64,000 bases of DNA from a phage: the sequence record PZ445439.1; one strand, written 5' to 3'. Below, piece by piece: positions 17,692 to 41,482 of this stretch (within the stretch, counting starts at the first letter, position 1; each line of letters opens with the position of its first letter). The position numbers and the translations under genes were made by a program. The notes under the pieces were generated by a model. It made no database searches. It worked only from the letters and a program-made list of their open reading frames with translations, and was not told where the DNA came from.

Positions 17692-17714
17692 TAGTTGATA
17701 GTTGTATAGTACCA
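17692..17714 (-). repeat. 23-bp promoter-associated repeat tagttgatagttgtatagtacca (copy 1)
   Basis: exact copies also at 19131..19153 and 35274..35296; near copy 22705..22726. Confidence 0.8.
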
Positions 17715-17735
17715 CAGAGGAACAGTCTTGTAAAC
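17704..17735 (-). promoter_or_regulatory. T4 early-type promoter (-35 GTTTACA, -10 TACTAT)
   Basis: minus strand GTTTACA-18 nt-TACTATAC then GGAGG-ATG. Confidence 0.5.
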
Positions 17736-17737
17736 AA

Positions 17738-19130: not shown

Positions 19131-19153
19131 TAGTTGATAGTTGTATAGTACCA
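19131..19153 (-). repeat. 23-bp promoter-associated repeat (copy 2)
   Basis: identical to 17692..17714. Confidence 0.8.
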
Positions 19154-19175
19154 TAAAGCTTTATGCGTGTAAACA
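19143..19175 (-). promoter_or_regulatory. T4 early-type promoter with A/T-rich UP element
   Basis: minus strand TTTTTCACAAAACTGTTTACA...TACTATAC upstream of AAA ATPase gene. Confidence 0.55.
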
Positions 19176-22687: not shown

Positions 22688-22713
22688 GATGTTCTCCTCT
22701 TTATCTGATAGTT

Positions 22714-22745
22714 GTATAGTACCACAGCTCAAACGGAAAGTAAAC
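22714..22745 (-). promoter_or_regulatory. T4 early-type promoter
   Basis: minus strand GGTTTAC...TACTATAC following terminator hairpin. Confidence 0.5.
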
Positions 22746-22761
22746 CGGTAAAATGAAAAAA

Positions 22762-29297: not shown

Positions 29298-29876
29298 TTA
29301 ATTACCACGGGCTGCATTAGCAACGGCGTAAGCGTACTGAACATTAGCGTCCTTAAACGTACCTTTAGAGGTATCTATTTCTGCCTTAAAGCCGCCTTTA
29401 GCCATAACATCGGCAAATTCTTTACGGAAAGCCATTGCATCAAGACCTTTCCATGATGATTTGTGCTTGGCGAATTCAAGACCAGCGTAGTTGACAGCCT
29501 TAGCTAATTTATTATCAATGACCCATTTACCGGCTTTAGGCACAAACTTCGGGCCTTTTTGTTTAGAGAACAGTTTTAAATTCCAGCGACGAAGATCACT
29601 GTCGGCTTTAACAAAAGCTGCGTCTAAGTTACTAGCAACAACATCTTCAATATGAGCAAATTTAAGTCCGTCAACTTCAATATTTAAATCGGTACGCCAG
29701 CGAAGTCCTTCCCAAGCGAAAGCTTTAAAATCGGAAGCTTTTGTAGCTAAGTATCGTTCAAGTGGAGCAGTTTTAGGGTCAAAGCCGTTTCCACCACGAT
29801 AGTTCCACTCGTCCTTATTAATGCCTTTGGCCTTTACTACAGAAGCTTCAGCAATAAATTCTTGATACGTTTTCAT
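29298..29876 (-). CDS. capsid internal protein with N-terminal capsid-targeting sequence (IPIII-like)
   Basis: N-terminus MKTYQEFIAE followed by basic Lys/Ala-rich body; 192 aa. Confidence 0.7.
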   Translation of the reverse strand: MKTYQEFIAEASVVKAKGINKDEWNYRGGNGFDPKTAPLERYLATKASDFKAFAWEGLRWRTDLNIEVDGLKFAHIEDVVASNLDAAFVKADSDLRRWNLKLFSKQKGPKFVPKAGKWVIDNKLAKAVNYAGLEFAKHKSSWKGLDAMAFRKEFADVMAKGGFKAEIDTSKGTFKDANVQYAYAVANAARGN

Positions 29877-29901
29877 TTTGTTCCTATTGATTTAATTTAT
29901 G

Positions 29902-30216
29902 TTATTCTTTAGGGAAGTTTTTAGAGTATGCATCATAAAGTTTATTACCGATGCGACGGAAGACTTTAGCTGCAAAACGGTTTTCAGGGTTTTTAATCAT
30001 GATTTGCATCATGTAAGTTCCTGCATCCGAAAGAGCTTCTTCATAGTACCCATTAATTTCTTTAAGAGTCCTACGTTTACCGCCAGGACCGTCAACAGTA
30101 ATTTTCCATTTACCTGTAGAAGTGCGGCTCGGTGGCTCAACTTGTTCAATCCAAATATAACCACCTTCAACGCGTTGGTTGGCGGATTCTGCAATAAATT
30201 CTTGATACGTTTTCAT
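29902..30216 (-). CDS. capsid internal protein (CTS-bearing)
   Basis: N-terminus MKTYQEFIAE; 104 aa; own early promoter. Confidence 0.65.
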   Translation of the reverse strand: MKTYQEFIAESANQRVEGGYIWIEQVEPPSRTSTGKWKITVDGPGGKRRTLKEINGYYEEALSDAGTYMMQIMIKNPENRFAAKVFRRIGNKLYDAYSKNFPKE

Positions 30217-30246
30217 TTTTGTTTCCTTGTTTGTTTTGATAGAGTA

Positions 30247-30276
30247 ATTATATCATATTAATACTTAAGCGTAAAC
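30247..30276 (-). promoter_or_regulatory. T4 early-type promoter (-35 GTTTAC, -10 TATAAT)
   Basis: minus strand GTTTACGCTTAAGTATTAATATGATATAAT upstream of 29902..30216. Confidence 0.5.
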
Positions 30277-30279
30277 TGT

Positions 30280-30540
30280 TTAAGCTTTACCACCAGAAAT
30301 AATTCCGAAGTTGTTAAAATCATATCCAATATCGTCAACATCTACTTTAGGGCTTGCTACAACATAAGCAATTTCACTACGTTTTGCATAGGTGTTTATT
30401 TCTCTACCATCGCCGCCTAGGAAAGAATACCCATTACGTTTTAATGAGCCAAAATCTTCGGCATCACCAACGAAAGCTTTAACTTTAAATTTGGGGCCTT
30501 TGGCATCTGCTTCAGCGATAAATTCTTGATACATTTTCAT
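30280..30540 (-). CDS. capsid internal protein (CTS-bearing), 86 aa
   Basis: N-terminus MKMYQEFIAE. Confidence 0.65.
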   Translation of the reverse strand: MKMYQEFIAEADAKGPKFKVKAFVGDAEDFGSLKRNGYSFLGGDGREINTYAKRSEIAYVVASPKVDVDDIGYDFNNFGIISGGKA

Positions 30541-30546
30541 TTTTCC

Positions 30547-30960
30547 TTAGTAAATTGATTTACCATAGTATTTGTACCAAGTAGGGCGTTGAGCAATTTT
30601 TTCATCTAAGCGAGCTTGACTTATCGCAATGGACGCTTCGGACGGGACATAATTATTACGAAATTCGACAGGGATGTCGGAAATATCCTGGACAGTCGTG
30701 TCCTTGATTTTGAAACCACGTTTCAAGCATTCAGCGATTAGCTCGATTTGACGTAAACGTAAAAATTCGAGTTTGTCGTAAAAGAATGTTACGTGACCTG
30801 TGCCTAAGATAAATGTTGGAGAGATTTTAAAATCCTTTACACGTTTACCGTTTTGAACATGTTTACGGACTGCACCAAATACGCGTGGTAATTCACGATA
30901 CTCAGCCATAAGATGTTGGTCGGTCAGTTCAGAAACAAGTGTTAAATTGATACGAGTCAT
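30547..30960 (-). CDS. denV: endonuclease V (pyrimidine dimer DNA glycosylase)
   Basis: [12 protein letters not shown]...[11 protein letters not shown]; 137 aa from ATG at 30960 with GGAGGA RBS. Confidence 0.9.
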
Positions 30961-35440: not shown

Positions 35441-35471
35441 CTTAGATACCAAAAAGCCCCAACCTTTCGGC
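35441..35471 (-). repeat. 31-bp direct repeat containing terminator hairpin (copy A)
   Basis: aaaaagccccaacctttcggctgaggctaag; 30/31 identical to 36006..36036. Confidence 0.85.
35445..35468 (-). terminator. rho-independent terminator (stem AGCCUCA/UGGGGCU, GAAA-type loop, U5)
   Basis: hairpin followed by TTTTT on minus strand, 3' of CTS protein gene. Confidence 0.6.
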
Positions 35472-35485
35472 TGAGGCTAAGAATG

Positions 35486-35959
35486 TTATTTGATTTGTTT
35501 AGCAGACCAAATGCGGTCTTTAATAATTTTTTGGATGTCTTCAACATACTCAAGAGAGTGAACATGCGGGTTATCTTTGAAACTATAAGCACGAGCTAAC
35601 TTTTGGCCTTCAGTTTTGATTACTAAAAGCTCTTTAAGGATAGCTTCATATTTGGAGATAATTCCTTTAACAATATTTTTCTCTTGTGCTACTTTAGGAT
35701 CTGCTTTAGGAGCAGGTTTACCTGAAGCCTTTGCAAAAGCAGCTCCAGTAGCAACTAAACTTTTCCAAGCCATACTAACTGCATTTCCCGTAAATCCTTC
35801 TGCTTTCATATCGCGAGCAAATTGGAATCGCGATTCATCAGAAGCATCTTTATAGGAATATTTACCCGCGGCAATGGCAGCTTTTGCGACAGCTTGAATT
35901 TCAGTGCTAGATGCTTCATTTAACACCGCTTCATTTAAAAATTGAGCATATGATTTCAT
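35486..35959 (-). CDS. capsid-targeted internal protein-like protein (CTS-bearing), 157 aa
   Basis: N-terminus MKSYAQFLNE-AVLNE resembling MKTYQEFIAE CTS; late promoter upstream; flanked by terminator repeats. Confidence 0.6.
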   Translation of the reverse strand: MKSYAQFLNEAVLNEASSTEIQAVAKAAIAAGKYSYKDASDESRFQFARDMKAEGFTGNAVSMAWKSLVATGAAFAKASGKPAPKADPKVAQEKNIVKGIISKYEAILKELLVIKTEGQKLARAYSFKDNPHVHSLEYVEDIQKIIKDRIWSAKQIK

Positions 35960-35995: not shown

Positions 35996-36003
35996 TATTT
36001 ATA
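35996..36003 (-). promoter_or_regulatory. late promoter TATAAATA
   Basis: minus strand GTATAAATAAG about 35 nt upstream of 35959 start. Confidence 0.45.
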
Positions 36004-36005
36004 CT

Positions 36006-36036
36006 AAAAAGCCCCAACCTTTCGGCTGGGGCTAAG
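36006..36036 (-). repeat. 31-bp direct repeat containing terminator hairpin (copy B)
   Basis: aaaaagccccaacctttcggctggggctaag. Confidence 0.85.
36010..36033 (-). terminator. rho-independent terminator of tRNA/stable-RNA operon
   Basis: perfect 7-bp stem AGCCCCA/UGGGGCU + inner CC/GG, followed by TTTTT. Confidence 0.65.
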
Positions 36037-36429: not shown

Positions 36430-37095
36430 TTAAAATTTCATTTTTCGACCTTTAAACCATCCTTCTGGAATTGGGTCAGTTTTCTTAATACGTTTAGAAA
36501 CTTTTTCATCTAATGAATGAATCCACATCATACCAAATTGGGAATTCTTTTCACCTTTTTGGTGATTATTTTTAGCATGAATTTCTTTCATTTTATTAAT
36601 AGTTTCAGGAGTATGGGTCTTACCCAAGAAAGATTTAGTATTTAAAAATTTCTCTCTATACTTAGGATTATCCCAAAGCTGTTTAAACCTTTCTGAACCC
36701 ATTTTACGATATTTTTCTTTAAGGTCTGGGTCGTTCTCAAATCTGGTTTTAAAAGCAGCAGCCCCTTTTAAGGAAGCTTCTTTCTTTTTATCCAAATATT
36801 CTTTAGTGTTTAAATGGTCCCAACCACCTTCACCACCTAATTTCAAATTATAAACATCAGGGCGCTTTAAAAACTCTTCAGTCAAAATATTCTTTTCTGA
36901 CTCAAACATAGAGGTTTTATCGTCAAAGAACTCTAATATTTCTTTAGAGAAATTTTCTATACCATACTTGTCTTGGGCTCTTTTTAATAATTTACCAGAA
37001 CCCATATATCCATCATCTAAATTTTCGGTAGAATGAGCGCCTATATAGATTTTATTATTAATTTTATTTGTTATTTTATAAGTGTAATGGAACAT
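36430..37095 (-). CDS. segB: GIY-YIG homing endonuclease SegB
   Basis: 221 aa; YTYKITNKINNKIYIGAHS GIY-YIG module; located inside tRNA cluster as in T4. Confidence 0.8.
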   Translation of the reverse strand: MFHYTYKITNKINNKIYIGAHSTENLDDGYMGSGKLLKRAQDKYGIENFSKEILEFFDDKTSMFESEKNILTEEFLKRPDVYNLKLGGEGGWDHLNTKEYLDKKKEASLKGAAAFKTRFENDPDLKEKYRKMGSERFKQLWDNPKYREKFLNTKSFLGKTHTPETINKMKEIHAKNNHQKGEKNSQFGMMWIHSLDEKVSKRIKKTDPIPEGWFKGRKMKF

Positions 37096-37136: not shown

Positions 37137-37208
37137 TGGCCCTGGGTGGAATTGAACCACCATCTGGCGATTATGAGTCGCTTGCTTGAACCTTCCAGCT
37201 ACAGGGCC
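37137..37208 (-). tRNA. tRNA-Ile (anticodon CAU, lysidine-type)
   Basis: acceptor GGCCCTG/CAGGGCC, anticodon loop CTCATAA, T-loop GGTTCAATTCC. Confidence 0.75.
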
Positions 37209-37209
37209 T

Positions 37210-37285
37210 TGGTGCTGATTGACGGAATCGAACCGCCGACCTTCTCATTACAAGTGAGTTGCTCTACCTACTGAGCTAAATCAGC
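37210..37285 (-). tRNA. tRNA-Thr (anticodon UGU), CCA encoded
   Basis: acceptor GCTGATT/AATCAGC, D-arm TAGCTCAGTAGGTAGAGC, anticodon loop CTTGTAA, T-loop GGTTCGATTCC. Confidence 0.85.
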
Positions 37286-37292
37286 GAAATTA

Positions 37293-37379
37293 CGGAGGCG
37301 ATAGGATTTGAACCTATGAGTCGCCGGAGCGACTGCCGGTTTTCAAGACCGGTGCATTAAACCACTCTGCCACGCCTCC
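37293..37379 (-). tRNA. tRNA-Ser (anticodon UGA), long variable arm
   Basis: acceptor GGAGGCG/CGCCTCC, anticodon stem CCGGT/ACCGG loop CTTGAAA, T-loop GGTTCAAATCC. Confidence 0.85.
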
Positions 37380-37381
37380 AG

Positions 37382-37455
37382 TCTCCGTGGCAGGATTTGA
37401 ACCTACGACATTCTGCTCCCAAAGCAGACGCTCTACCAAACTGAGCTACACGGAG
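37382..37455 (-). tRNA. tRNA-Pro (anticodon UGG)
   Basis: acceptor CTCCGTG/CACGGAG, D-arm TAGCTCAGTTTGGTAGAGC, anticodon loop TTTGGGA, T-loop GGTTCAAATCC. Confidence 0.85.
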
Positions 37456-37467
37456 TAAATTAAATTT

Positions 37468-37539
<72 letters not shown>

Positions 37540-37545
37540 AAACTT

Positions 37546-37632
37546 TGGTACGAGAAGTGGGACTCGAACCCACAAGGAAATCATTCCGCAGCATTTTAAG
37601 TGCTGTGCCTTTACCAATTTGACCATTCTCGC
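37546..37632 (-). tRNA. tRNA-Leu (anticodon UAA), long variable arm, CCA encoded
   Basis: acceptor GCGAGAA/TTCTCGT, anticodon stem CAGCA/TGCTG loop CTTAAAA, T-loop GGTTCGAGTCC. Confidence 0.85.
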
Positions 37633-37633
37633 G

Positions 37634-37706
37634 CTGGGAATAAAGGACTCGAACCTTTGCATCTAGCAGTCAAAGTGCTATGCCTTACCAACTTGGCTAA
37701 TTCCCA
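37634..37706 (-). tRNA. tRNA-Gln (anticodon UUG)
   Basis: acceptor TGGGAAT/ATTCCCA, D-arm TAGCCAAGTTGGTAAGGC, anticodon stem TAGCA/TGCTA loop CTTTGAC, T-loop GGTTCGAGTCC. Confidence 0.85.
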
Positions 37707-37792: not shown

Positions 37793-38308
37793 TTAAAGCA
37801 AATTAAACATTTTAACGGTCGGCAAAACAATTTCTTTTTCTATATAAGAGTATTTAACACTCTCAACTACACGCAAAAAATCATAATCATAATACTCAGA
37901 AGCACTGCCTAAAATATTAATAAGTCCTTCAAGCACTTTATTACCATTCACAAAGAATAAGTCAAATACACGTTCTTCGTCTTCTTCGGATTTATTACCA
38001 AGGTCAACTTCTATGTCAAAGACCTTTTTAATGAATTCTGGATAAAGTTGTTCTGAGAACAGTCCTTCAACCAAGTATTCATAAATAAAAAGCGATTGCT
38101 CGCTGAACAAGCCATTACCACAATAACGTTCAGCTTTAGTACTAGAATGTCTACTTTTAAACTTCTTTAAAAGATATTGAAATTGTAAGATTTCATGCTC
38201 TTCTACGCCAAACAGTGTTTTAGTTTTATAGTTGTCACCATCATTTTCCCAGGTAGTGACATCAATTACGTAACCCTGTGGAATTGTAGTACCTAAACAA
38301 ATATTCAT
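37793..38308 (-). CDS. hypothetical acidic protein
   Basis: 171 aa ORF upstream of tRNA cluster. Confidence 0.45.
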   Translation of the reverse strand: MNICLGTTIPQGYVIDVTTWENDGDNYKTKTLFGVEEHEILQFQYLLKKFKSRHSSTKAERYCGNGLFSEQSLFIYEYLVEGLFSEQLYPEFIKKVFDIEVDLGNKSEEDEERVFDLFFVNGNKVLEGLINILGSASEYYDYDFLRVVESVKYSYIEKEIVLPTVKMFNLL

Positions 38309-38604
38309 TTGCTCACCATATTAATGTAAGTATATTCAATACATTCAAGACCCAAAGGATTCTTGAAAATATCATATTCAAGAGGACCTTTTTCCGTTTC
38401 AATAAAGAAATCAAAATTTACTGTATTAAATTTACGGTCTTCCTTCACTAATTTAACCTGAGAAGATGAACGGTCAATGTAAACCTTTTCAACTTCAAAA
38501 CATGTTAAAATGCCATAATCATCAATCAAGGCTTTAGCTGCTTCTTGATCATATTTATATCCATTTTCAATGGATGATACTTTAGCATAAAGAATCATTA
38601 TCAC
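38305..38604 (-). CDS. hypothetical protein
   Basis: 99 aa; its first 26 nt are duplicated at 39013..39038. Confidence 0.45.
   Translation of the reverse strand: MIMILYAKVSSIENGYKYDQEAAKALIDDYGILTCFEVEKVYIDRSSSQVKLVKEDRKFNTVNFDFFIETEKGPLEYDIFKNPLGLECIEYTYINMVSK
38576..38601 (-). repeat. 26-bp direct repeat (copy 1, gene start)
   Basis: tactttagcataaagaatcattatca identical at 39013..39038. Confidence 0.85.
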
Positions 38605-38981
38605 ACTCCGTAGTCTATCTTGACCAATCTACCTTTGTAGTAGCCAAAGTTCTTTGGAAAGGCATCATACTCAAAGAAATCACGGTCAAGCGTTCTGCAT
38701 TCATCACCATCAACATCATTATAGAGCTTTTGCAAATCAGATTTAAAAAGCTCCTTATCCTCAACTGGCTCTGCTTTGTGCATCACAACCATGAGACCAA
38801 ATCTGTTTGAGTATGCTATTGGGCATAGGTGCTTGTTATCATACCCCTTCCACTGACCTTCTGTAAGATTGCTGAGCATACCCTGCACGAAGTGTTTCCA
38901 TGTCTTGGGGATAGGGAATTTAATAGCATACTTACGTGTTAGTAGTACCCATCTGGTTCCACCCGATTTAATTAATTTCAT
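38601..38981 (-). CDS. hypothetical protein
   Basis: 126 aa ORF. Confidence 0.45.
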   Translation of the reverse strand: MKLIKSGGTRWVLLTRKYAIKFPIPKTWKHFVQGMLSNLTEGQWKGYDNKHLCPIAYSNRFGLMVVMHKAEPVEDKELFKSDLQKLYNDVDGDECRTLDRDFFEYDAFPKNFGYYKGRLVKIDYGV

Positions 38982-39012
38982 AGTCTCAGCTACCTCAATA
39001 TTAATTTAAGCA

Positions 39013-39038
39013 ATATCATTCCTATAAGGTAGTACTTT
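39013..39038 (-). repeat. 26-bp direct repeat (copy 2, intergenic pseudo-start)
   Basis: encodes truncated MILYAKV... then stop after 15 codons. Confidence 0.85.
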
Positions 39039-39055
39039 AGCATAAAGAATCATTA

Positions 39056-39466
39056 TCAGCCTCTATCAACGATAGCATGAGTATGGGCATTTACGATTTG
39101 CCACCAGTCGAAACGATTGGAACCATAATCTGGTTTATTTTCATTTTCTTTAATGATATCACGCAATTTATCTTCTGTTTCAGCATACGCAATTAAATCA
39201 TCATATCCACCACAAGGATAATAATTATCACCTGCGAATAAAAGAAAATTTACCTTAGATGGATTTACGTAATAATGGTCTTTAGGATATTTAGTTCCTC
39301 TCCAATCAGTTACTTCAACATAACGGTAAGAAAATCCATTTTTACTTTCAATCCAACTCCACGCTTCAAAAGGAGTATTAAAAACTTTATCAGGTATTAA
39401 ATTACCTTCAAAATGAGAAGGATTTGCATAATCCCCGGCATAAACATAATATTCGTTAATACTCAT
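39056..39466 (-). CDS. hypothetical protein (Tyr/Trp-rich)
   Basis: 136 aa ORF. Confidence 0.45.
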   Translation of the reverse strand: MSINEYYVYAGDYANPSHFEGNLIPDKVFNTPFEAWSWIESKNGFSYRYVEVTDWRGTKYPKDHYYVNPSKVNFLLFAGDNYYPCGGYDDLIAYAETEDKLRDIIKENENKPDYGSNRFDWWQIVNAHTHAIVDRG

Positions 39467-39652
39467 TTATTCACCTTTAGAAATTTTATCCATAACGATA
39501 GCAATTAAACCAATTAAAAATGCTACTACAAGTGAAAACACATTTTCTGCTGTAGTTAATAATCCGCATATAAATCCAACAAACATTGAAAAACTAAAAG
39601 CGGAAGCAGAAATTGCAATAGCAACATTTCGAATTAATTCACAACGTTTCAT
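39467..39652 (-). CDS. small membrane protein
   Basis: 61 aa, two hydrophobic segments; GAGGAG RBS and early promoter upstream. Confidence 0.45.
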   Translation of the reverse strand: MKRCELIRNVAIAISASAFSFSMFVGFICGLLTTAENVFSLVVAFLIGLIAIVMDKISKGE

Positions 39653-39680
39653 TTTATTCTCCTCAGTAGTTGATAGGGTA

Positions 39681-39710
39681 ATAGTATCACTACCCTATCT
39701 AAAAGTAAAC
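39681..39710 (-). promoter_or_regulatory. T4 early-type promoter with -10 inside 9-bp inverted repeat
   Basis: minus strand GTTTACTTTTAGATAGGGTAGTGATACTATTACCCTATCAA; inverted repeat GATAGGGTA/TACCCTATC. Confidence 0.5.
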
Positions 39711-39944
39711 TCATTTTTTACGAAAAATTGATTTATTTTCTGCTGCCCATTTTTCAATAACTGCAGCCGGACCAGTAACAACAATTTTATCACCGTAATC
39801 TTCTGCGGCGAGTTGACCGAAATCATCTAATGCATCACGAAGAACTCCATGAGGCATTTCACCCATTTTATCTTTCTTGCCAGTGTAAATAAACTCAACT
39901 TTTACATCAGCAGTTTCAGCAATAAATTCTTGATACGTTTTCAT
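39711..39944 (-). CDS. capsid internal protein (CTS-bearing; ipI position)
   Basis: MKTYQEFIAE N-terminus from ATG at 39944 with GGAGAAC RBS; adjacent to 57B. Confidence 0.6.
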   Translation of the reverse strand: MKTYQEFIAETADVKVEFIYTGKKDKMGEMPHGVLRDALDDFGQLAAEDYGDKIVVTGPAAVIEKWAAENKSIFRKK

Positions 39945-39980
39945 TTTGTTCTCCAATTTCACATTTGTTTTGATAGGGTA

Positions 39981-40010
39981 ATAGTATCACTACTAAAACC
40001 CCATGTAAAC
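39981..40010 (-). promoter_or_regulatory. T4 early-type promoter
   Basis: minus strand TTTCACAAAGTTGTTTACA-17 nt-TACTAT upstream of ipI-position gene. Confidence 0.5.
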
Positions 40011-40022
40011 AACTTTGTGAAA

Positions 40023-40719
<697 letters not shown>

Positions 40720-40720
<1 letters not shown>

Positions 40721-41433
40721 TATAGTACCTTTAGTGTATTTTTAATTTTAGAAAAAAGTTCTTCAAGAGAACCATCGTTTGTAATTACTAAATCGCCATC
40801 ACGAATTGGCAATCCAGCTTCTGTAATATGAGTATCATTGGATTTTTGACCAGGACGAACTACATGAATTACTGTAGCACCCATCGCCCTAGCCGCATCC
40901 ATTTCATGATCTTGACGAGTATCAGGAACGATATAATAATCATAACCTGAGTTAAATTTATCAAGATAATCTAAAGCAAATAATTTTACCCAGTACATGC
41001 GGTCGAAGTTATTAACAATCAAATCCGTACCTAGGGCTTGCATCAGACGACGGACTGACCATTGATCTTCAATATTATTTATAACGTCAGTAATTTTGTT
41101 AAATGCTACGAAATTAACTGCGTCATCAAAAACAAACACACCTTTAATTGGGCTTTTACTATTAAGATAGCAAAATGCTTGTTCCATAATCGTAATTACT
41201 TCTAATTTAGTCAGATTTAAATTAGTTTCACGATCATAGTCAATTCCTTCAAACTCTTTACGAGTTAAGCAAGGATAGTCAGTGTTTGCTGCAAATACAC
41301 CCCATGCATAAGCCAATGCATCCTTAATAGGACCAGCAAGTTGGTATTTAACTGCAGAATAATTGCTCATGATAAAATCAGCAGTAGTATCTTTTCCACT
41401 GCGCTTTACACCGCTTAAAAAGATTAGTTTCAT
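40720..41433 (-). CDS. 1: deoxynucleoside monophosphate kinase
   Basis: P-loop GVKRSGKDT; ATG at 41433 with GAGGAG RBS; 237 aa. Confidence 0.85.
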
Positions 41434-41482
41434 GTGTTTCTCCTCAAATTTAATTAAGATTATAACACACAAAACTGAAGCA

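Follow-up and report, generated by a model that had tools for sequence, protein, structure and literature searches.

A 26-bp direct repeat around a foreign gene at the trna.3/trna.2 junction of a T4-like phage, the probable target duplication of a recent insertion

The 64,000-nucleotide stretch of phage DNA analysed here (sequence record PZ445439.1; the whole stretch is called the window) carries an exact 26-nt direct repeat, TACTTTAGCATAAAGAATCATTATCA, whose copies at positions 38578-38603 and 39033-39058 are spaced by 455 bp and bracket a 429-bp cassette encoding a single small protein. Its open reading frame (ORF) list, the profile matches and the annotations of relatives assign the source of the window to the T4-like phages, genus Tequatrovirus. 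With a probability that we put at about 0.8, the pair of 26-mers arose as a target duplication when the foreign cassette inserted, once and recently in evolutionary terms, into the junction between the homologues of the T4 genes trna.3 and trna.2, in a phage resembling teqdroes and JK1. The record closest to the window is that of phage teqdroes, which belongs to the species of JK1 (98.2% identity over 22 kb of structural genes); no identical record was found in the collection searched.

The comparison with relatives carries most of this reading. The region is matched by 848 phage records, many of them over exactly 455 bp less than the length found in the window. A single junction, in which trna.3 directly abuts trna.2, is present in T4, JK1, vB_Eco_Some, teqskov, teqhad, RB3, KIT06 and UFV13. 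In the alignment, JK1 and vB_Eco_Some lack exactly one copy of the 26-mer plus 429 bp, whereas QOTSP displays the same two-copy structure as the window. The 429 bp of intervening DNA occur in 9 of the 632 records that match trna.2 and trna.3, corresponding to seven distinct phages (QOTSP, EL, ESh17, PhiZZ30, G10400, G4507 and ECP52), always at the same site and always between both copies of the 26-mer. As these seven carriers were sequenced independently, the repeat structure is not an assembly artefact. The filled site therefore corresponds to the empty site plus 455 bp, i.e. one repeat copy and the cassette. Nothing is missing from it, which identifies the event as an insertion and not a replacement. 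A preliminary description of this DNA, made from its letters alone, had proposed that recombination replaced or inserted the gene at 38601..38981 and had suggested examining related phages for its presence or absence between the repeat copies; the comparison bears out the insertion and disposes of the replacement.

The empty junction is widespread and is retained even in JLBYU31, whose trna.3 protein is 56% identical to that of the window; on this distribution, the filled state is the derived one. Furthermore, the start of trna.2 recurs in the upstream copy of the 26-mer as a duplicate without function, and such a copy arises by duplication alone. The JLBYU31 allele of trna.3 (381 nt, locus positions 1498-1878) keeps its C-terminal half while its N-terminal half has been replaced, and the trna.3/trna.2 junction reads TAAATAATG in place of TGATAATG. 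This gene, which lies upstream of trna.2 and matches the cargo gene of the cassette exactly in length, was considered as another copy of the cargo and rejected: it is a divergent trna.3 allele devoid of similarity to the cargo, and its sequence points to mosaicism within the gene adjoining the insertion site. A gene of equal length occupies the same position, upstream of trna.2, in 4E10 (locus positions 1463-1843).

The 26-mer corresponds to the stop/start junction of the trna.3 and trna.2 homologues. On the coding (minus) strand, TGATAATGATTCTTTATGCTAAAGTA reads as the stop codon TGA of the upstream gene, the dinucleotide TA, the start codon ATG and the six codons ATT, CTT, TAT, GCT, AAA and GTA, 18 of the 26 nt being trna.2 coding sequence. 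The window contains no match other than these two, even with up to three mismatches, and the 26-mer was found in none of 100 dinucleotide-preserving shuffles; in 646 relatives, it occurs at one place per record. A repeat finder extends the repeat to 31 nt at 94% identity, because the last codons of the cargo gene, GGA GTG, occupy the place of the AGA GGC of trna.3. In the upstream copy, the duplicated start opens a pseudo-ORF of 15 codons, MILYAKVLPYRNDIA followed by TAA, which runs into the leader of the cassette. Its start context, TGATAATG, is a stop/start coupling identical to that of the real trna.2 start, and the pseudo-ORF is probably translated. The preliminary description had correctly recognized the exact 26-nt recurrence, the 74-bp gap (38982-39055) and the frame closing after 15 codons (39053-39006), but placed the second copy at 39013..39038, 20 nt below its actual position. 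It had also rightly noted that the repeat covers the ATG of a gene, but took this gene as the ORF 38305..38604, which opens at GTG 38604, whereas the true start of trna.2, as in relatives (97 aa), is the ATG at 38598-38596.

The composition and the relationships of the cassette designate it as foreign. The cargo gene displays a GC content of 0.41 and a GC content at third codon positions (GC3) of 0.44, versus a GC3 of 0.18-0.26 in the neighbouring genes, and the GC content of the whole cassette lies in the top 7.5% of segments of 429 nt. Homologues of the cassette, with 66-78% nucleotide identity, are found in unrelated coliphages, namely phi G17 and Moonfish (Schitoviridae, N4-like), A7_1 and A5-4 (Vequintavirinae, rV5-like) and GaoY1-9D (Drexlerviridae, T1-like). 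In addition, 45 homologues of the cargo protein share 57-85% identity with it and are mostly encoded by phage-genome-like contigs of 45-72 kb. The cargo gene is itself a mosaic, the first ~126 nt matching the N4-like group at 86-97% identity and the middle part matching the 48-kb contigs at 84-95%. The 51-nt leader that precedes it, missing from the empty-site phages, agrees at 36 of 51 positions with the sequence preceding the phi G17 homologue, versus 8-19 of 51 positions for nine other homologues; the closer protein relatives of the cargo (75-85% amino-acid identity) have upstream sequences unrelated to the leader. No nearer donor emerged from a search of IMG/VR with the cargo protein, nor from a search of IMG/VR and the JGI metagenomes with a leader pattern that allowed the letters of both the window and phi G17.

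A scan of positions 38200-40100 found no promoter or terminator above shuffle background in the repeat, the leader or the cassette. By eye, the leader includes a MotA-box-like TGCTTA, without a -10 element at the required spacing, and the nearest early-promoter-like element is located at ~39709. Without a recognizable promoter or terminator of its own, the cassette is presumably expressed by read-through transcription. A leader hairpin, CTACCT...AGGTAG, that could have masked the GAGG of the cargo was discarded since it folds no better than shuffles (z = 0.76).

The two joints, which are the same in all carriers, are also informative, with phi G17 serving as a 74%-identical proxy for the donor. 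At the 5' joint, the similarity to phi G17 runs from the leader into the repeat for 5 of 6 nt (AAAGTA versus AAAGCA) and then becomes random. At the 3' joint, it extends through TGAnnATGATT (9 of 11 nt) before becoming random. Matches of this quality are expected at random positions at rates of 0.6% and 0.02%, respectively. In the recipient, the AAAGTA patch lies 15-26 nt downstream of the patch that matches the 3' side of the donor, TGATAATGATT. This arrangement suggests that the joints were made by microhomology-guided illegitimate recombination or by template switching. The joints may have formed during T4-type recombination-dependent replication. DNA synthesis would have departed from the recipient past ...GCTAAAGTA (AAAGyA in the donor), would next have copied the donor cassette and would then have returned to the recipient at TGATAATGATT (TGAnnATGATT in the donor), 26 nt upstream; the 26 nt located between both patches would hence have been copied on either side. 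Instead of the departure and return of a replicating 3' end, two exchanges using two copies of the recipient could have taken place. T4 recombination needs only small patches of homology (<50 bp; Singer 1982, as cited in PMC2839356), and joins at microhomologies fit the recombination-dependent replication of T4 and the use of very short homologies ascribed to it in that citation.

Several points weigh against this reading of the repeat as a target duplication. The databases searched, including IMG/VR and the JGI metagenomes, hold no donor with more than 85% amino-acid identity, and the cargo gene is a mosaic with respect to all known relatives, which obscures its history before its entry into T4-like phages. 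Since phi G17, the one relative that shares the leader, is just 74% identical, the microhomologies are read from a distant proxy; the short-homology or illegitimate recombination put forward in the preliminary description has only these suggestive microhomologies in its favour. The match at the 5' joint amounts to just 5 of 6 nt, and the rate of 0.02% for the 3' joint is optimistic because TGAnnATG is common at phage gene boundaries, with ~100 instances in the window. Finally, the joints fit equally well with template switching, with two exchanges made one after the other using two copies of the recipient, and with an initially longer duplication that a deletion later trimmed.

The carriers also document what happened after the insertion. 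The cassette is 98.8-99.8% identical among them, and the trna.2 flank 93.5-100%. The trna.2 gene of the window is 100% identical over 273 nt to that of the empty-site phages JK1, vB_Eco_Some and teqskov, versus 93.5-97% to that of the other carriers, and its trna.3 gene is 99.5% identical to those of JK1, teqskov, T4 and vB_Eco_Some. Both repeat copies of the window correspond to the junction allele of the JK1-type empty site, and the upstream copy of every carrier has the GCT allele of this site. Unlike the window, the seven other carriers share a C at position 4 of the upstream copy, an A at position 20 of the downstream copy and a G at nt 114 of the cassette. As the outgroups have G at nt 114 (AAG), the A of the window (AAA) is derived. 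The first mismatch in the flanks of the carriers is found from +3 to +132 nt in trna.2 and from -12 to -74 nt in trna.3. These variable distances indicate that the cassette and both repeats probably moved as a unit between T-even backgrounds by homologous recombination in the flanking genes. Its JK1-type flanks and still-identical repeats probably place the window near the lineage that first received the cassette, and it would have retained the pristine duplication. Precise loss of the cassette through the 26-bp repeats is possible, and the empty-site phages with identical flanks are either ancestors or precise revertants, the data fitting both. The GCA and TGAC variants found in the repeats of the other carriers were considered as alleles of empty sites, which proved not demonstrable; teqhad, the closest empty-site relative, has GCT.

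Two identical copies would also be expected if a 455-bp circle carrying one 26-mer, excised from another carrier through recombination of its two repeats, had entered an empty JK1-like genome by a single, Campbell-type crossover. Such a circle would be a promoter-less analogue of the mini-circles formed by promoter-early stem-loop (PeSL) cassettes, which have been demonstrated in the phages RB49 and phi1 (PMC2839356). The flanks of the window, identical to those of empty-site phages up to the repeat, and its two identical copies agree with this route; a circle leaving a QOTSP-type carrier through a crossover between repeat positions 4 and 20 would carry the T/T allele and, once integrated, yield two identical copies. 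However, this route is unlikely and calls for more rare events. It needs two crossovers within at most 26 bp, far under the lengths of efficient homology, and the window cassette differs from those of the other carriers at nt 114, where it has the derived AAA and the outgroups AAG. The breakpoints of the seven other carriers lie outside the repeats, at variable distances, as in ordinary recombination of flanks, and a simpler tree has two branches, the window lineage and the lineage of the seven carriers, both descending from an ancestor that carried the cassette between identical copies. Moreover, it would explain the acquisition by this phage and not the origin of the cassette, leaving the first appearance of the duplication unexplained.

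A direction opposite to insertion, in which the filled state would be ancestral and most T4-like phages would have lost the gene by deletion between the 26-bp repeats, is much less credible still. Recombination between direct repeats does restore the empty junction precisely, JK1 and teqskov could be such revertants, and homology patches shorter than 50 bp are used in T4 recombination (Singer 1982, as cited in PMC2839356). But the upstream copy, as a duplicate of the trna.2 start, stems only from a duplication, the empty junction is common to phages as divergent as T4, RB3, KIT06/UFV13 and JLBYU31, and the cassette is >98.8% identical among carriers whose flanks differ by up to 6.5%; the foreign GC3 of the cargo and the small proportion of filled records (9/632) argue likewise. 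The direct repeats around an inserted segment, and the segB-like GIY-YIG gene found ~1.5 kb away, could evoke the target-site duplication of a mobile element, whether a transposon, an insertion sequence or a homing-endonuclease cassette. Yet the sole ORF of the cassette is kinase-like, Pfam, PADLOC and fold searches revealed no transposase or nuclease, the ends of the cassette carry no terminal inverted repeats, and the cassette occupies a single locus in all carriers. Typical target-site duplications are far shorter than 26 bp, and to our knowledge homing does not duplicate its target; the intervention of a mobile element is therefore very improbable. As for a conserved regulatory or translational-coupling motif, or a chance repeat, the 26-mer does span a stop codon coupled to a start codon, an arrangement (TGAnnATG) often met in the window; but its mostly trna.2-coding make-up, its lack of promoter or terminator signal, its two copies in 64 kb and its absence from shuffles leave this a negligible chance. 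The regulatory element present at many loci, which the preliminary description had set against its own interpretation, is likewise at odds with a sequence found at one place per relative. The insertion with target duplication thus remains the preferred reading.

This insertion preserved the signals of the genes that it separated. The stop codon of trna.3 is intact, and that of the cargo is the TGA of the downstream 26-mer copy. The native start of trna.2 is kept, as is its TGA-TA-ATG coupling, with the cargo as the new upstream partner, and the last cargo codons, GGA GTG, lie at the Shine-Dalgarno position formerly held by the AGA GGC of trna.3. Workable stop/start signals were therefore left for all three genes.

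The cargo protein (126 aa) has no match above cut-off in Pfam (DUF3440, at E 0.087, being far below threshold) and none in PADLOC, and a sequence search of PDB returned spurious MS2 coat matches only. In PHROGs, it belongs to phrog_4301, of unknown function. An AlphaFold model built from 41 homologues reached a predicted local distance difference test score (pLDDT) of 91.6. The top 50 Foldseek matches in PDB are all protein kinases and aminoglycoside phosphotransferases, with marginal E values of ~1e-3. The best matches in BFVD come from small proteins of phages, including one under the name protein kinase domain protein (E 5e-9). K21, D106 and N111 do not vary among the 41 homologues; E41 and D123 are each found in 90% or more of them. 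These residues would form the constellation of a kinase, with K21 in strand 3, E41 at the end of a helix, D106-x4-N111 and D123-Y-G, an assignment made from spacing and secondary structure rather than residue-level superposition. In the model, an N-lobe beta-sheet and an alpha-C helix are followed by a catalytic loop and the strand pair of the DFG motif, as in kinase-like folds. With its last residue, 126, three positions beyond D123, the protein has no activation segment and lacks most of the C-lobe. It is thus predicted to adopt a truncated protein-kinase-like fold. Compared with the minimal kinases OspG/NleH, HopBF1, archaeal Ark1 and Bud32/Rio, it is 45-100 residues shorter, ending three residues past the DFG-equivalent Asp without the activation segment and the C-lobe helices. 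No description of a phage mini-kinase, nor any account of this locus, was found in the literature; the one paper on accessory genes retrieved for the locus mentions neither kinases nor this region. A bolder scheme, in which the 26-bp copies would act as self-made attachment sites, the 455-bp unit as a reversible mini-circle re-entering T-even trna.3/trna.2 junctions, and the cargo as an active mini-kinase used in four coliphage families for host takeover or counter-defence, is speculative and improbable.

Among known systems, the closest in appearance are the PeSL cassettes, named after a regulatory motif of ~100 bp that combines a sigma70-like early promoter with a stable stem-loop and is present at many loci of T4-type phages (Arbiol et al. 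2010, PMC2839356; Comeau et al. 2014, PMC4122927). Like them, the cassette is a single ORFan located in a hyperplastic region, bracketed by direct repeats and present or absent between near-identical phages, and its repeats allow, in principle, precise excision and re-integration. Unlike a PeSL, the 26-mer consists of a stop codon and coding sequence, was made by the insertion, harbours neither promoter nor stem-loop and is confined to one locus instead of being dispersed. The cassette also resembles morons (Hendrix et al. 2000, as presented in PMC2839356), with one gene of foreign composition between genes that are adjacent in relatives and an apparently illegitimate recombination devoid of conserved linkers. 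In contrast to morons, it has no detected promoter or terminator, is oriented as its neighbours and appears to rely on early read-through transcription and its own ribosome-binding site.

Variation of the small ORFs in the internal protein (IP) and tRNA region of T-even phages has been known since Repoila et al. 1994, as reported in PMC2839356 and PMC4122927, and variation in hyperplastic regions was later framed as PeSL-mediated shuffling (PMC2839356, PMC4122927). The polymorphic IP loci, as this work is reported there, lie in the same neighbourhood (57B - ip - trna.4/.3/.2 - tRNA genes) and similarly vary in the number and identity of small ORFs. However, their shuffling is attributed, in the same reports, to shared early-promoter/stem-loop elements and to a conserved capsid-targeting start, whereas the cassette encodes no IP, lacks the MKTYQEFIAE start and is flanked by a one-off duplication. 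Losses of DNA between short direct repeats are reportedly also known from T4, through work said to go back to Singer and co-workers in 1982 and Mosig and co-workers in 1998. In both these deletions and the present insertion, the recombination and replication machinery of T4 acts on homologies of tens of bp (Singer et al. 1982 and Mosig et al. 1998, as cited in PMC2839356); the 26-bp pair, however, records a gain of DNA from a donor of another family, the mirror image of a deletion end-point. The cassette is therefore best described as a gene gain by illegitimate recombination with a 26-bp target duplication, an event of a kind already known.

The window contains other repeats as well. Terminator-like hairpin repeats of 36 nt (35446-35481 and 36001-36036; 94% identical, 555 bp apart) stand on either side of a 157-aa ORF (35486-35959, minus strand) whose start, MKSYAQFLNEA, resembles the capsid-targeting start of internal proteins. 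T6, F2, SHFML-11 and RB3 have ~555 bp less there, which makes it a second repeat-flanked presence/absence cassette. Direct repeats of 41 nt (39670-39710 and 39970-40010, 80% identical), with an early-promoter-like GTTTAC...TACTAT and a stem-loop, flank the Ip6-like gene, at whose position vB_Eco_Some and QOTSP have an additional 258-nt gene. The latter repeats fit the IP-locus elements of Repoila and Arbiol, and those at 35446 and 36001 also fit the PeSL-like or Repoila-type elements, as far as these are described in the reports cited above. Three 69-nt repeats (29847-29915, 30187-30255 and 30511-30579) encode, in their conserved part, MK(T/M)YQEFIAE, the capsid-targeting start of internal proteins, on the minus strand; from their sequence, they appear to be a second ip cluster sharing duplicated gene starts for a functional reason. 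Three further repeats of 45 nt (17692-17736, 19131-19175 and 22702-22746) resemble T4 early promoters on the minus strand (TGTTTAC ... GGTACTATAC).

The features of the locus are listed in the table. The 57B homologue matches the anti-CBASS (cyclic-oligonucleotide-based anti-phage signalling system) nuclease family Acb1 of Pfam, whereas PHROGs and several GenBank records call it RNA ligase or hypothetical. Beyond the listed region, the segB-like ORF (36430-37095, minus strand), encoding a homing endonuclease of the GIY-YIG family, has tRNA-Arg and tRNA-Met as its neighbours. The annotations of QOTSP and EL place a homing endonuclease beside tRNA-Gly instead; in EL it sits between tRNA-Ser and tRNA-Gly, with tRNA-Pro displaced, and PhiZZ30 has an unannotated gap of the size of a homing endonuclease at the position of the QOTSP and EL genes. 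Endonuclease-driven co-conversion could aid the spread of nearby cassettes.

Table. Features of the insertion site and of its neighbourhood (positions in the window).
Feature	Position	Strand	Basis or remarks
Gene 1, deoxynucleoside monophosphate (dNMP) kinase	40720-41472	-	ORF list and annotation of relatives
57A	40478-40720	-	ORF list and annotation of relatives
57B/Acb1	40023-40478	-	Pfam Acb1, 2.6e-60
Ip6-like internal protein gene	39711-39944	-	ORF list and annotation of relatives
trna.4 homologue	39467-39652	-	ORF list and annotation of relatives
trna.3 homologue, 136 aa	39056-39466	-	phrog_1411, 9e-51; annotated Trna.3 in T4 and RB3
Upstream 26-mer copy	39033-39058	-	trna.3 stop TGA (39058-39056), TA, pseudo-start with 6 trna.2-derived codons
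Pseudo-ORF, 15 codons	39006-39053	-	duplicated start; stop 39008-39006; runs into cassette leader
Cassette leader, 51 nt	38982-39032	-	missing from empty-site phages; GAGG 11 nt before cargo ATG
Cargo gene, 126 aa	38601-38981	-	stop TGA inside downstream 26-mer copy
Downstream 26-mer copy	38578-38603	-	cargo stop TGA, TA, real trna.2 start ATG 38598-38596 and 6 codons
trna.2 homologue, 97 aa from ATG	38305-38598	-	phrog_2023, 1e-48
171-aa ORF	37793-38308	-	ORF list
tRNA cluster	37137-37706	-	annotations of relatives

For annotation, the 15-codon ORF should not be called a gene and the start of trna.2 is corrected to ATG 38598. The current understanding of phage genome plasticity is left unchanged. 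The family of very small kinase-like proteins found in T4-like, N4-like, T1-like and rV5-like coliphages makes a functional test worthwhile. More largely, the locus provides an unusually clean and datable case of gene gain by a virulent T4-like phage from unrelated phages: both joints are kept, the duplication is perfect, hundreds of relatives display the empty site, and a probable recipient lineage can be named. It also illustrates the tolerance of overlapping stop/start junctions as landing sites for incoming genes.

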